A DNA stretch of 64,000 bases from Escherichia coli (GTDB lineage Bacteria; Pseudomonadota; Gammaproteobacteria; Enterobacterales; Enterobacteriaceae), in the NCBI RefSeq assembly GCF_041886205.1, contig NZ_CP169029.1; one strand, given 5' to 3'. Both the position numbers and the translations under genes were made by a program. How positions within the stretch are numbered: position 1 is the first letter of the stretch; each line of letters opens with the position of its first letter. Shown piece after piece: positions 21,675 to 58,188 of this stretch. The notes beneath the pieces were generated by a model. That model did no database searches. It saw only the letters and a program-made list of their open reading frames with translations, and had not been told where the DNA came from.

Positions 21675-22607
21675 ATGTGGTCAGAATATTCACTCGAAGT
21701 TGTTGATGCGGTAGCGCGTAATGGTAGTTTTAGCGCTGCGGCACAGGAGCTGCATCGCGTTCCTTCTGCGGTCAGCTATACCGTGCGTCAGCTGGAAGAG
21801 TGGCTGGCGGTGCCGCTCTTTGAAAGACGGCACCGTGATGTGGAACTGACCGCTGCCGGGGCGTGGTTTCTCAAAGAAGGGCGCTCTGTTGTCAAAAAAA
21901 TGCAGATCACCCGCCAGCAATGTCAGCAGATAGCGAACGGCTGGCGCGGTCAGTTAGCTATCGCAGTGGATAATATTGTCAGGCCAGAACGTACACGGCA
22001 GATGATCGTTGATTTTTATCGCCATTTTGACGACGTCGAACTTCTGGTCTTTCAGGAAGTGTTTAACGGTGTCTGGGATGCGCTTTCCGATGGGCGCGTG
22101 GAACTGGCGATTGGCGCAACACGCGCGATTCCGGTAGGCGGTCGTTATGCCTTCCGGGATATGGGGATGCTAAGCTGGAGTTGCGTTGTTGCCAGCCACC
22201 ACCCGCTGGCGTTGATGGATGGCCCGTTCAGCGATGATACGTTGCGCAACTGGCCGTCGTTGGTGCGCGAAGACACCTCGCGAACGCTACCTAAACGTAT
22301 TACCTGGTTGCTGGATAACCAAAAAAGAGTTGTCGTGCCTGACTGGGAATCATCGGCAACCTGTATCTCGGCAGGATTATGCATAGGGATGGTGCCAACA
22401 CATTTCGCCAAACCGTGGCTTAATGAGGGGAAGTGGGTAGCACTTGAATTGGAGAACCCCTTCCCGGATTCGGCATGTTGTCTGACATGGCAGCAAAATG
22501 ATATGTCGCCTGCGTTAACCTGGCTGCTTGAGTATCTCGGCGATAGTGAGACGCTGAATAAGGAGTGGCTGCGGGAGCCGGAAGAGACTCCCGCAACGGG
22601 TGATTAA
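21675..22607 (+). CDS. punR: LysR-family transcriptional regulator PunR (YdhB)
   Basis: 310-aa ORF with N-terminal wHTH ([32 protein letters not shown]); divergent from punC. Confidence 0.85.
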
Positions 22608-23629
22608 CGACGATAGTCGCGGAACGGGCCGTCAGCCACGGAGCGGCGTTCAATCAAACGCGGATGCACTTCAATGGACTGCGGTTCTTCACGTTTGTTG
22701 ACGATACGATCCAACAGCATGTTGAACGCTGTTTCACCCAGCGAATCTTTTGGCTGATGGATCGTGGTCAGCGCCGGCGTAAAATAGCGCGCGTTGCGCA
22801 CGTTATCATAACCGATCAGCGAAACATCCTGCGGGACGCGCAGGCCCATTTCATCAGCAGCACAAAGTGCGCCCATTGCCATGATATCGCCACCACAGAA
22901 GACGGCAGTAGGGCGATGCGGCTGCGACAGGATTTGCTGCATGGCGCGATAACCAGATTCGGGTTCAAAGTCACCCTGCACAATCCAGCTTTCCGGCACC
23001 TTTATCATCGCTTCTTCCATCGCCTTCATAAAACCGGCAAGGCGGCCTGCGCCGGTGTTACGTTCCAGCGGGCCGGGGATGACGCCGATTTCGCGGTGGC
23101 CGCGTTCAATCAGATAACGCCCGGCCATGTAGCCGCCTTCGAACGCGTTATCAATGACCGCATCGGTGAAGTCAGCTTTTGCTTCACCCCAGTCCATGAC
23201 CACCATTGGGATATGGCGATACTCTTCCAGCATCGCCAGCAACGGCTCTGGGTACTCAGAACACATCACCAGCAGACCATCGACGCGTTTTTGCGCCATC
23301 ATCGACAGATAAGCCCGCTGTTTCTCAAGATTGTTCCACGCATTACCCAGAATCAGGGTGTAACCTTTCTGGAAGCAATTTTTTTCAACCGCTTCAATGA
23401 TCTCGGCAAAATAGGCCGCTTCGCTGCTGGTCGCCAGCAAACCGATAGACTTGGTGTGGTTAACCTTCAGGCTACGCGCCACCGCGCTAGGGGAGTAGTG
23501 TAATTCTTTAATCGCTGCCCACACGGCGTTGCGCGTTTCTTCAGCGACGAAACGTGTTTTGTTGATCACGTGTGACACAGTTGTAGTGGAAACGTTTGCT
23601 CGTTTCGCTACATCTTTTATTGTTGCCAT
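22604..23629 (-). CDS. purR: Purine repressor PurR (LacI family)
   Basis: 341-aa [60 protein letters not shown].. matching PurR. Confidence 0.95.
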
Positions 23630-23673
23630 TCCATTTCACTCCAGACCCTAACTTCAGCTCCTGCAAAATCGCA

Positions 23674-23689
23674 AGGTAAACGTTTGCCT
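23674..23689 (-). promoter_or_regulatory. PurR operator-like palindrome (candidate autoregulatory O1) in the purR leader
   Basis: AGGTAAACGTTTGCCT, a near-perfect 16-bp palindrome resembling the PUR box core AAACGTTT, 45 bp upstream of the purR start. Confidence 0.6.
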
Positions 23690-23927
23690 TTACACACCTT
23701 ACGCACAACAAAAGTGTTGCGGTACGCCGGAAAAACGACACGGAGCGTCAGGAAGGGGTCAATGGCCAGTACGCAAATAGTGTAAGCGTGGAATTTTGGC
23801 CGATCTTGACGAAAAGGGGAAGTGGTAAAAACACTTATCATTATAAATGACGGGAGATTTTTTCATCACAGTGTGTAAAAATGCGTAATATCACTTTTTG
23901 TGTGGTAATAAAAAAGGAGAAAACTTG

Positions 23928-24017
23928 ATGAGCACCGACCTTAAATTTTCACTGGTAACAACGATTATCGTCCTCGGTTTGATCGTGGCCGTGGGTTTGA
24001 CTGCCGCGCTGCACTGA
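23928..24017 (+). CDS. ynhF: Small membrane protein YnhF (29 aa)
   Basis: ATG preceded by AAGGAGA Shine-Dalgarno; encodes MSTDLKFSLVTTIIVLGLIVAVGLTAALH, a single predicted transmembrane helix; not in the supplied ORF track because it is under 60 aa. Confidence 0.7.
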   Translation: MSTDLKFSLVTTIIVLGLIVAVGLTAALH

Positions 24018-24182
24018 TTTCCTCTCGAGGGAGCGCGTTCTCCCTCGCATCTCCTTCCTGTTTGTTAGCAAAATGGCAAAAGTGTTTTCTCTTTTTGTTA
24101 TTTTCATTTTTTTGTGATTGCTGTCATGCTTTCGCCACTTTAATGAATATCGCGTAATGACGCGAAGAGGTGGAGATAAGGC

Positions 24183-25352
24183 ATGAAAATTAACTATCCG
24201 TTGCTGGCGCTGGCGATTGGCGCGTTTGGTATCGGGACAACGGAGTTCTCGCCAATGGGCTTATTGCCCGTCATTGCGCGCGGTGTGGATGTCTCGATTC
24301 CCGCTGCCGGAATGTTAATCAGTGCCTATGCAGTTGGCGTAATGGTGGGCGCGCCGCTGATGACGCTTCTACTTTCTCATCGTGCCCGCCGCAGTGCGTT
24401 GATTTTCCTGATGGCGATTTTCACGCTCGGCAACGTACTTTCCGCCATCGCGCCGGATTATATGACTCTCATGCTTTCACGCATTTTGACCAGCCTGAAT
24501 CACGGAGCATTTTTTGGTTTGGGTTCAGTTGTGGCCGCAAGCGTGGTGCCAAAACATAAACAGGCCAGCGCAGTTGCCACTATGTTTATGGGGTTAACCC
24601 TGGCAAATATCGGTGGCGTGCCGGCGGCGACCTGGTTGGGTGAAACCATCGGCTGGCGGATGTCATTTCTGGCAACGGCGGGGCTGGGCGTGATTTCAAT
24701 GGTAAGTCTGTTCTTCTCATTACCTAAAGGTGGTGCAGGGGCACGACCTGAAGTGAAAAAAGAGCTGGCGGTATTAATGCGTCCGCAGGTGCTGTCTGCA
24801 TTGCTGACGACGGTACTGGGAGCTGGTGCAATGTTTACCCTCTACACCTATATCTCTCCGGTACTGCAAAGTATTGCCCACGCAACACCGGTGTTCGTCA
24901 CGGCAATGCTGGTGCTGATTGGTGTCGGATTCTCTATCGGTAACTATCTCGGCGGCAAACTGGCAGATCGTTCAGTTAACGGCACGTTGAAAGGCTTTTT
25001 GTTGTTGTTGATGGTGATTATGCTGGCAATCCCGTTCCTGGCCCGCAATGAGTTCGGCGCAGCTATTAGCATGGTGGTGTGGGGCGCAGCAACCTTTGCG
25101 GTCGTACCGCCGTTACAGATGCGCGTGATGCGTGTCGCCAGTGAAGCGCCAGGTCTGTCTTCATCAGTCAATATTGGTGCCTTTAATCTTGGAAATGCGC
25201 TGGGAGCAGCGGCTGGTGGTGCGGTAATTTCCGCTGGGCTGGGATACAGCTTTGTGCCGGTGATGGGGGCGATTGTCGCGGGACTGGCATTATTGCTGGT
25301 GTTTATGTCAGCCAGAAAACAACCTGAAACAGTTTGCGTTGCTAACAGCTAA
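24183..25352 (+). CDS. ydhP: MFS transporter YdhP
   Basis: 389-aa 12-TM ORF matching YdhP. Confidence 0.85.
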   Translation: MKINYPLLALAIGAFGIGTTEFSPMGLLPVIARGVDVSIPAAGMLISAYAVGVMVGAPLMTLLLSHRARRSALIFLMAIFTLGNVLSAIAPDYMTLMLSRILTSLNHGAFFGLGSVVAASVVPKHKQASAVATMFMGLTLANIGGVPAATWLGETIGWRMSFLATAGLGVISMVSLFFSLPKGGAGARPEVKKELAVLMRPQVLSALLTTVLGAGAMFTLYTYISPVLQSIAHATPVFVTAMLVLIGVGFSIGNYLGGKLADRSVNGTLKGFLLLLMVIMLAIPFLARNEFGAAISMVVWGAATFAVVPPLQMRVMRVASEAPGLSSSVNIGAFNLGNALGAAAGGAVISAGLGYSFVPVMGAIVAGLALLLVFMSARKQPETVCVANS

Positions 25353-41113: not shown

Positions 41114-41581
41114 TTAGCGCGGAGAAACGGTCACCTGACTGCCATTGCTGGCCAGTACGACACGTTGGCCCGGAGAGAAACGAGTGTTGCCTTGTTTCTG
41201 TACCACCATGATGGTATTACCATCGTCTTTACGAATTTCCAGCTCGACACCCTGCGTTTTGTTCATTGCACTCTGTACGCCCTGACCAGCTACGCCACCT
41301 GCAACAGCGCCTGCTGCAGTAGCCAGAGAACGCCCGGTTCCGCCACCAACAGTATTCCCCAGGAAACCACCAAGAACAGCACCGCCAATTGCACCGATAA
41401 CGTTGGAATCATCACCGCCCTGAATCTGTACCGGACGTACGTTAACGATGGTGCCATAGCTGACATTCTGTACTTGTTTCGCTTCAGAAGCGGTATAAAC
41501 ATCCCCTGACAGGGTGTCGTTATTAACACAACCGACAAGAGACAGACCTACCATTGAAACAACCAATACGCGTTTAATCAT
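41114..41581 (-). CDS. slyB: Outer-membrane lipoprotein SlyB
   Basis: 155-aa ORF with lipobox (LVGC) and Gly-rich glycine-zipper region. Confidence 0.92.
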   Translation of the reverse strand: MIKRVLVVSMVGLSLVGCVNNDTLSGDVYTASEAKQVQNVSYGTIVNVRPVQIQGGDDSNVIGAIGGAVLGGFLGNTVGGGTGRSLATAAGAVAGGVAGQGVQSAMNKTQGVELEIRKDDGNTIMVVQKQGNTRFSPGQRVVLASNGSQVTVSPR

Positions 41582-56291: not shown

Positions 56292-56507
56292 TTATTGGAC
56301 ATAGTGCCAGACGGACTTCGGTACCTGGCCGAGGTCAAACAAACGCCCGCCAGAAACCAGCTCTGCGCGACGGTGATCGGCAGCACGATACATATTGATC
56401 AGTTCCTGATCGTCCGTCAGGGTGTAATTAAGATGGTCGTAGAGTTTTTCCAGACTTTCGAGTGAACTGATTTTGCGAAATTTTAATAAGTAGTCCTGAA
56501 CAGTCAT
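56292..56507 (-). CDS. cnu: OriC-binding nucleoid-associated protein Cnu (YdgT), Hha family
   Basis: 71-aa [61 protein letters not shown].. matching Cnu. Confidence 0.92.
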
Positions 56508-56779: not shown

Positions 56780-56905
56780 TTACTTGTGTTGTACCGAAGC
56801 ACTCTGTTCAGGTGGCTGATAGTTGTCAATGTGACTCGCCACGCCAAGAAGAATGACTGAAACGACAAGAACGATCCAACCTGTTAATTCAATAAGACGA
56901 TTCAT
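56780..56905 (-). CDS. blr: Small membrane protein Blr (41 aa)
   Basis: Internal Met of ORF 56780..56980 gives MNRLIELTGWIVLVVSVILLGVASHIDNYQPPEQSASVQHK, matching Blr from memory. Confidence 0.7.
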   Translation of the reverse strand: MNRLIELTGWIVLVVSVILLGVASHIDNYQPPEQSASVQHK

Positions 56906-57147
56906 TACAGCCCACATCTCTCTTGATTGATCCATTAACTTCAGGGGGTAAATGTTACTTAGCAATAATAGCTCCAGCAAGATTTTTACTGAGGTTTTTG
57001 CGATATTTAGCTTTTGTCGTTGGAAAATTCGCTATTTTTTTGACTTAAGTTAAACAACATCCCTTATTGCTGGCAGGTTATTAAACTGTTGAGCGTGGGT
57101 AAAGGATAGTGTCAAATAGCCATCATACTTCAATGAGAGGCAATGAC

Positions 57148-58188
57148 ATGAGCGACAACATCCGTGTTGGGTTGATTGGGTATGGTTATGCGAGCAAAAC
57201 CTTCCATGCGCCCCTGATTGCGGGCACGCCCGGGCTGGAACTGGCGGTAATCTCCAGCAGTGATGAAACAAAAGTAAAAGCCGACTGGCCAACGGTTACG
57301 GTTGTCTCTGAGCCGAAGCATCTGTTTAACGATCCCAACATAGACCTGATTGTCATTCCTACACCCAACGATACCCATTTCCCGTTAGCCAAAGCGGCGC
57401 TTGAGGCGGGTAAACATGTGGTCGTTGATAAACCCTTTACCGTGACACTGTCACAAGCGCGAGAGCTGGATGCGCTGGCAAAAAGCCTGGGGCGTGTGCT
57501 GTCTGTATTCCATAACCGTCGCTGGGATAGCGATTTCTTGACGCTAAAAGGTTTACTCGCGGAAGGCGTGCTGGGTGAAGTTGCTTACTTTGAGTCTCAT
57601 TTTGACCGCTTCCGTCCGCAGGTGCGCGATCGTTGGCGTGAACAGGGCGGCCCAGGCAGCGGTATCTGGTACGATTTAGCACCACATCTTCTTGATCAGG
57701 CCATTACGCTTTTTGGTTTACCGGTCAGCATGACGGTAGATTTGGCACAGTTACGGCCCGGAGCGCAGTCGACCGATTATTTCCACGCCATCTTGTCCTA
57801 TCCACAGCGGCGAGTCATTTTACACGGTACCATGCTGGCAGCCGCTGAGTCAGCACGGTATATCGTGCATGGATCCCGAGGCAGTTATGTGAAATATGGC
57901 CTCGATCCACAGGAAGAACGTCTGAAAAATGGCGAGCGTCTACCGCAGGAAGACTGGGGCTACGATATGCGTGATGGCGTACTTACCCGCGTGGAAGGTG
58001 AGGAACGTGTCGAAGAAACGCTGTTGACGGTGCCTGGGAATTATCCGGCTTACTATGCGGCTATTCGTGATGCGTTAAATGGCGATGGTGAAAATCCGGT
58101 TCCGGCAAGCCAGGCAATCCAGGTAATGGAGTTGATTGAGCTGGGTATCGAATCCGCCAAACATCGCGCGACTTTGTGCCTTGCATGA
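57148..58188 (+). CDS. ydgJ: Gfo/Idh/MocA-family NAD(P)-dependent oxidoreductase YdgJ
   Basis: ORF trimmed to MSDNIRVGLIGYGYASKTFHAPLIAG.. (346 aa) after a GAGAGG Shine-Dalgarno; Rossmann motif GLIGYG. Confidence 0.88.
   Translation: MSDNIRVGLIGYGYASKTFHAPLIAGTPGLELAVISSSDETKVKADWPTVTVVSEPKHLFNDPNIDLIVIPTPNDTHFPLAKAALEAGKHVVVDKPFTVTLSQARELDALAKSLGRVLSVFHNRRWDSDFLTLKGLLAEGVLGEVAYFESHFDRFRPQVRDRWREQGGPGSGIWYDLAPHLLDQAITLFGLPVSMTVDLAQLRPGAQSTDYFHAILSYPQRRVILHGTMLAAAESARYIVHGSRGSYVKYGLDPQEERLKNGERLPQEDWGYDMRDGVLTRVEGEERVEETLLTVPGNYPAYYAAIRDALNGDGENPVPASQAIQVMELIELGIESAKHRATLCLA

Follow-up and report, generated by a model that had tools for sequence, protein, structure and literature searches.

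It can be regarded as almost certain that the window, meaning the whole stretch of 64,000 nucleotides analysed here, is part of the Escherichia coli chromosome, and that two very short open reading frames (ORFs) within it, cydH (ynhF) and blr, are genuine small-protein genes that have already been characterised. cydH occupies 23928..24017 on the + strand (29 codons and a TGA stop) and encodes a single-pass membrane subunit of cytochrome bd-I, and blr, as annotated, occupies 56780..56905 on the - strand (41 codons and a TAA stop) and encodes a single-pass membrane protein that has been associated with the division septum. Nothing in the data contradicts either identification. Both genes are known and annotated, and the analysis brings nothing new on the function of either protein.

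The names YnhF and Blr, together with their coordinates, had been proposed in a preliminary description based on the letters of the DNA, and they prove correct when compared with PDB 6RKO, NF033411, PF24673, NF033231, and RefSeq. The label "unannotated" given there to both genes does not hold, as RefSeq/PGAP annotates cydH as well as blr and curated HMMs exist for each. A reading of raw sequence thus picked out two real genes of fewer than 60 amino acids that are hidden by generic ORF cut-offs, which provides a calibration point for readings of this kind. Each of the two is a textbook case of a functional microprotein. CydH is of interest because it shapes how oxygen gains access to bd-I, cytochrome bd being a target for antibacterial drugs, and Blr bears on cell division and on intrinsic beta-lactam susceptibility.

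Identity and role of CydH

Translation of 23928..24017 (+) gives MSTDLKFSLVTTIIVLGLIVAVGLTAALH, a product of 29 amino acids (ATG, then 28 codons and TGA), all 29 residues of which are identical to chain H of PDB 6RKO, described as "Cytochrome bd-I ubiquinol oxidase CydH (YnhF)". The same 29-residue sequence is found in eight PDB entries. The NCBIfam equivalog NF033411 ("cytochrome bd-I oxidase subunit CydH") matches over profile positions 1-29 of 29 with 50.2 bits against a cut-off of 30, and the ORF carries the RefSeq/PGAP label cydH, "cytochrome bd-I accessory subunit CydH". No model matched CydH in the copy of Pfam used for the scan; the newer PF28012 is listed on CydH relatives in the protein collection. 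When the query was padded to 42 amino acids and searched against that collection, the matches were confined to close relatives in the Enterobacteriaceae. The surrounding 801-bp region occurs in 5425 of 5426 complete E. coli genomes.

The protein contains one transmembrane-grade segment, with a best 19-residue Kyte-Doolittle mean of 2.53 at residues 10-28, and Blr likewise has one, with a mean of 2.46, in agreement with the single hydrophobic helix ascribed to each of them beforehand. The position of ynhF between purR (22604..23629, -), which is divergent from it, and ydhP (24183..25352, +), a gene for a 389-amino-acid MFS protein lying downstream, was also read correctly and is described in the same way in PMC6853902. 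The cydABX genes lie outside the window, so that the location of cydH between purR and ydhP is an orphan one.

The role of the protein is known from published work. YnhF/CydH was found by mass spectrometry in purified bd-I, as a fourth subunit occluding a route of O2 entry (PMC6853902; PMC8951039), and its detection by mass spectrometry in purified bd-I and the channel-blocking model are also presented in PMC12648545. In top-down mass spectrometry, CydH was observed in intact form with its formyl-Met retained, at a sequence coverage of 100% (PMC12529367). Tagged-protein detection had been suggested as a check on this small ORF, and the mass spectrometry of the purified enzyme (PMC6853902) and of the intact subunit (PMC12529367) answers the question of whether the protein is made. 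In cryo-EM structures, CydH sits in the cleft between TM1 and TM9 of CydA, on the face opposite CydX (PMC6853902; PMC8951039). In the Geobacillus enzyme, O2 enters by a spacious access to heme b595; CydH blocks the equivalent of this access in bd-I, where a narrow channel from CydB leads O2 to heme d instead (PMC6853902; PMC8951039).

Taken in order, the mechanism would begin with translation of cydH from its own strong ribosome-binding site, after which the 29-residue, single-helix product would enter the inner membrane. As the published cryo-EM structures suggest, it would then bind CydA in the TM1/TM9 cleft of the cytochrome bd-I quinol oxidase and cover the lateral opening towards heme b595, leaving O2 to reach heme d by the narrower channel that starts in CydB. 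The physiological consequence, in terms of substrate selectivity and production at low oxygen, would be as deduced in the literature. Sequence identity to the solved subunit and conservation of the gene are results of the present analysis, whereas the binding site and the blocking of the channel are taken from the papers cited.

Production of CydH has been reported at low oxygen (PMC6853902; PMC8951039; PMC12648545). A search upstream of cydH for FNR sites (TTGAT-N4-ATCAA, at most 3 mismatches) returned nothing convincing, the best nearby candidates having 2-3 mismatches and one of them overlapping the start codon. According to PMC8951039, CydH co-occurs with cydAB of the long-Q-loop type (L-subfamily).

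Start signal and conservation of cydH

A mechanical ORF list opens the cydH frame at an upstream TTG (23898) rather than at the ATG at 23928. The latter is the start codon in use, as fixed by the formyl-Met product seen in top-down mass spectrometry (PMC12529367). Eight nucleotides 5' of this ATG lies AAGGAG (23914..23919, +), read from the sequence as the Shine-Dalgarno (SD) element of cydH; its duplex with the anti-SD is worth -8.7 kcal/mol, within the top 1.3% of ATGs in the window, and it is near-invariant in an alignment of 81 sequences. The preliminary description had credited both genes with good start contexts. For ynhF, with AAGGAG and -8.7 kcal/mol, this is borne out; for blr it is not, as the annotated ATG there forms an anti-SD duplex of -4.7 kcal/mol, which is weak and ranks in the top 17% of window ATGs.

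Conservation was assessed at PurR-anchored loci from 80 species of Enterobacteriaceae, including members of Escherichia, Citrobacter, Salmonella, Enterobacter, Klebsiella, Raoultella, Kosakonia, Kluyvera, Trabulsiella, and Franconibacter. A 29-codon cydH orthologue divergent from purR is present in all 80, so the conservation of the reading frame, which had been named as a test of the gene, is complete in this set. These orthologues represent 78 different DNA sequences and 53 different proteins, all of the same length and free of indels. Across the 80 species, codon positions 1, 2, and 3 have per-site entropies of 0.49, 0.29, and 1.30, respectively, the mean pairwise pN/pS is 0.22, and residues L5, T11, T12, L16, I19, V20, and A26 are invariant. 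The cydH frame shows a clear coding signature and is under purifying selection.

Small open reading frames as a background

Small ORFs are abundant in this DNA. Within 1 kb there are 21 ORFs of at least 20 amino acids, and 610 ORFs of 20-59 amino acids that begin with ATG occur in the window; it is therefore homology and conservation that make the case for cydH and blr, rather than the presence of an ORF as such. Among these 610, a transmembrane-grade hydrophobic 19-mer occurs in 10 and an SD of -8 kcal/mol or stronger in 6, and ynhF is the only one that combines the hydrophobic segment with a strong SD. One further candidate was considered and rejected, a hydrophobic ORF of 40 amino acids, MIPTLSVQLAVLFLVVSWGILLVAEPGVLWLLQQALLQVA (41290..41412, -), preceded by a moderate SD. 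Its frame differs from that of slyB (41114..41581, -), the gene within which it falls, and it is most likely a product of chance.

Family and function of Blr

Translation of 56780..56905 (-) gives MNRLIELTGWIVLVVSVILLGVASHIDNYQPPEQSASVQHK, a product of 41 amino acids (ATG, then 40 codons and TAA). It is matched over its full length by Pfam PF24673 (Blr_divisome) with 89.4 bits against a gathering threshold of 27, and by the NCBIfam equivalog NF033231 with 91.8 bits against a cut-off of 40; the RefSeq label at this position is blr, "division septum protein Blr". Its transmembrane-grade helix is N-terminal (residues 4-22). Behind the helix follows a conserved tail, HIDNYQPP(E); 178 homologous cluster representatives share invariant residues that include H-I-D-N-Y-Q-P, and residues H25, I26, D27, N28, Y29, Q30, and P32 are invariant in one alignment (A1), with the same motif invariant in another (A3). 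A search of the PDB with Blr returned no meaningful match, the best being CcmE at E = 1.3.

Homologues of Blr are found in Escherichia, Shigella, Salmonella, Citrobacter, Enterobacter, Lelliottia, Leclercia, Kosakonia, Phytobacter, Yokenella, and others. In the window, blr is flanked by ydgT/cnu (56292..56507, -) and ydgJ (57148..58188, +), and loci from Salmonella, Enterobacter, and Lelliottia share the gene order ydgJ-blr-HHA(cnu)-ydgK-rsxA; Enterobacter sp. ENT03 has a different downstream neighbour of blr. Two side observations concern this neighbourhood. The mechanical ORF list opens ydgJ at a GTG at 57109 (359 amino acids), compared with the RefSeq start at an ATG at 57148 (346 amino acids). 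In the E. coli sequence NZ_CP035874.1 (hit H11), an IS1B splits the ydgT-blr-ydgJ region into two aligned pieces.

Blr is described as divisome-associated by Karimova 2012 and Wong 2000, as these are cited in PMC7648144 and PMC10470546. It is also a substrate of the intramembrane protease RseP (PMC10470546), and doubts have been raised about its many divisome partners in two-hybrid assays, some of which might be false positives (PMC7648144). The product of blr would thus be a single-pass protein of 41 residues, or of 45 if a conserved upstream ATG is used, with the HIDNYQPPE segment in the periplasm. From the literature, it would localise to the division septum, contact several divisome proteins as registered in two-hybrid assays, affect susceptibility to inhibitors of peptidoglycan synthesis, and be cleaved by RseP. 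Membership of the family and conservation come from the present analysis, and the function comes from the literature.

The start codon of Blr

The alternative that survives best concerns the boundaries of blr. Immediately 5' of the annotated start lie four in-frame codons, ATG TGG GCT GTA (56906..56917, -), and the gene as annotated may be four codons short, with translation proceeding wholly or partly from the ATG at 56917..56915 to give a 45-residue Blr that begins MWAVMNRL. Judged from the comparison of sequences, this longer form is a serious contender, rated only a little below an even chance.

Several features of the family favour the upstream start. The ATG at 56917..56915 is invariant in a DNA alignment of five genera, and at the position of E. 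coli Met1 three of the five sequences carry another codon, namely ATT (Enterobacter), ATC (Lelliottia), and TTC (Enterobacter sp. ENT03). Among 92 Blr homologues, defined as cluster representatives whose annotated sequence extends five or more residues ahead of the NR motif, a Met stands exactly four codons upstream in 91, and the residue aligned with E. coli Met1 is I in 43, M in 29, F in 14, V in 5, and T in 1. These longer-annotated homologues carry 36 different five-residue prefixes. From the upstream ATG to the conserved NR motif there are no indels, and indels appear just upstream of that ATG. Many RefSeq entries for Blr, from Kosakonia, Phytobacter, Yokenella, Lelliottia, and Enterobacter, already stand at 45 amino acids.

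Against this, E. coli, Salmonella, and Citrobacter carry both ATGs, either of which is usable, and the published description, to go by the title of Wong 2000, is of a 41-residue protein. Pairing with the anti-SD is slightly better at the downstream ATG (-4.7 vs -3.1 kcal/mol), and neither candidate start has a convincing Shine-Dalgarno sequence. The literature searched yielded no initiation-site profiling or N-terminal mass spectrometry data for Blr. On the sequence evidence, the E. coli protein could be 45 amino acids long, 41 amino acids long, or both.

The choice of start also bears on annotation. In the Enterobacter assembly GCA_037199315.1 (L084:1201-1326), a 41-amino-acid Blr is annotated from an ATT, with an in-frame ATG 12 nt upstream, and the ATT was probably chosen to fit a family model built on the E. 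coli protein. If the reference start of Blr lies four codons too far downstream, HMM-guided annotation propagates it, to the point of ATT starts in Enterobacter.

The region downstream of cydH and the neighbouring transporter gene

Nine nucleotides past the cydH stop codon stands a G+C-rich hairpin, CGAGGGAG-cgcgtt-CTCCCTCG (24026..24047, +). Its stem is conserved and its loop variable across genera, with alternative stems such as GGGGGAG/CTCCCCC, and RNAalifold gives a structure conservation index of 0.89 for the 12 sequences that pass the gap filter. The hairpin mostly occurs without a canonical U-tract, and a consensus terminator scan of 23500..24300 did not call it because the U-run is missing. 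A consensus promoter scan of the same interval called no promoter on the + strand. The hairpin is a probable 3'-end or terminator-like element, and it may act as a 3'-end stabiliser or as an atypical terminator.

The preliminary description had hinted that YnhF might, as is often the case for small membrane proteins, modulate a transporter or sensor, and had pointed to its place next to the gene for the MFS transporter YdhP. The arrangement of the genes is compatible with such a role, as ydhP begins 165 nt downstream of ynhF on the same strand and is the next gene after cydH in 77 of the 80 species, and papers including PMC12648545 state in general terms that other small membrane proteins regulate transporters or sensors. 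However, the sole partner demonstrated for YnhF is CydA of cytochrome bd-I (6RKO; PMC6853902; PMC8951039), the conserved hairpin stands between the two genes, and two members of the set, Salmonella enterica subsp. arizonae (L015) and a Pluralibacter MAG (L053), retain cydH with no ydhP homologue found in the 2.6 kb downstream. No link between YnhF and YdhP was found in the literature searched. A modulatory role of YnhF on YdhP or on a sensor is accordingly very improbable, and the functional framing of YnhF in the preliminary description is outdated, the identical sequence being that of an oxidase subunit, chain H of bd-I, encoded away from cydABX.

The DNA 5' of ydhP has features of its own. 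Conserved blocks are present at 24074..24135 (+). Within them, TGTGATTGCTGTCATG (24113..24128) resembles a pair of CRP half-consensus sequences, and GGCAAAAGTGTTTTC (24076..24090) corresponds to a fuller palindrome, GCAAAA-N-TTTTGC, in other genera.

The purR-cydH intergenic region and STnc550

Rfam RF02081, "Enterobacterial sRNA STnc550", matches 23630..24020 (+) over model positions 1-388 of 388, with 396.1 bits against a gathering threshold of 48. This span takes in the entire divergent intergenic region between purR and cydH (23630..23927, +), which forms the 5' part of the match, together with the cydH ORF, the coding sequence of which corresponds to model positions ~296-385, the 3' quarter of the family. 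The name STnc550 was not found in the literature searched.

The intergenic DNA is unusually conserved. Across 81 sequences it contains long blocks that are 90-100% identical, for example at 23720..23830; these surpass cydH third codon positions in conservation and are free of three-base periodicity, and they presumably represent dense promoter, operator, or leader sequence. Also located here, in the purR leader region, is an operator palindrome of the PurR/GalR type, AGGTAAACGTTTGCCT (23674..23689), which coincides with one of the "helices" of the Rfam STnc550 consensus. Its reverse complement matches the GalR ChIP-chip site AGGCAAACGTTTACC reported for ynhF/purR (PMC5110547), and by its sequence it looks like an autoregulatory operator for PurR. 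In addition, a ChIP peak of MarA/RamA in purR<>ynhF has been reported for Salmonella, and trimming of a 5' extension of the ynhF mRNA by RNase G has been reported in the literature.

A conserved RNA structure in the 298-nt leader was considered and rejected. RNAalifold detected none, the structure conservation index being 0.07-0.13 whichever strand was folded, and the variable pairs of the Rfam consensus are not maintained. When the 53 consensus pairs of Rfam were mapped onto the alignment of 81 sequences, 72% of the cells were canonical, compared with 67% when the pairs were read as the opposite strand, and the variable pairs mostly break.

That 23630..24020 is a non-coding sRNA in which the 29-codon ORF is incidental is hardly credible, since the end-to-end match to RF02081 and the high conservation 5' of the ORF are set against a protein-coding substitution pattern at fixed length in 80 species, a CydH protein present in a solved structure and in top-down mass spectrometry, a consensus structure that leaves the cydH ORF unpaired and includes the operator palindrome as a helix, pairs scarcely more canonical than on the opposite strand, and a leader of low structure conservation on either strand. 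As an exclusively non-coding RNA, STnc550 is refuted by the evidence for the CydH protein. The simplest reading is that the family combines the cydH mRNA with a divergent regulatory region that is densely packed, and is not a structured sRNA. That an Rfam sRNA family is largely a protein-coding mRNA and a divergent promoter region is of practical value.

The 5' region of the cydH transcript, which runs antisense to the promoter and leader of purR, might still serve as a regulatory RNA, one that makes the translation of cydH responsive to oxygen or that has purR or something else as its target. Such a function is considered unlikely, and nothing in this analysis supports it; if true, it would make the transcript a dual-function RNA tying purine regulation to respiration.

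Comparison with known systems

The Rfam family RF02081, STnc550, is typed as an sRNA gene, yet its 3' quarter is the cydH coding sequence and its 5' part the purR-cydH regulatory region. For Blr, the family described by PF24673 and NF033231 is the same E. coli gene, with the same annotation and the same neighbours, ydgJ and ydgT/cnu, and no difference from it was found. The family models themselves begin at E. coli Met1, whereas the ATG conserved family-wide lies four codons upstream.

The gene known as CydH, CydY, or YnhF (NF033411; 6RKO chain H) is the same as that at 23928..24017, with no difference in sequence, place, length, or single helix. CydX, AppX, and CydS resemble CydH in being small single-pass subunits that are held on CydA by hydrophobic contacts. 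The bd-II and mycobacterial enzymes are without a CydH (PMC8951039). The gene for CydX, unlike that for CydH, belongs to the cydABX operon; the CydX protein docks on the opposite face of CydA (TM1, 5, and 6) and is required for assembly and activity. CydH is encoded elsewhere, binds at TM1/TM9, and is the proposed gate of O2 access.
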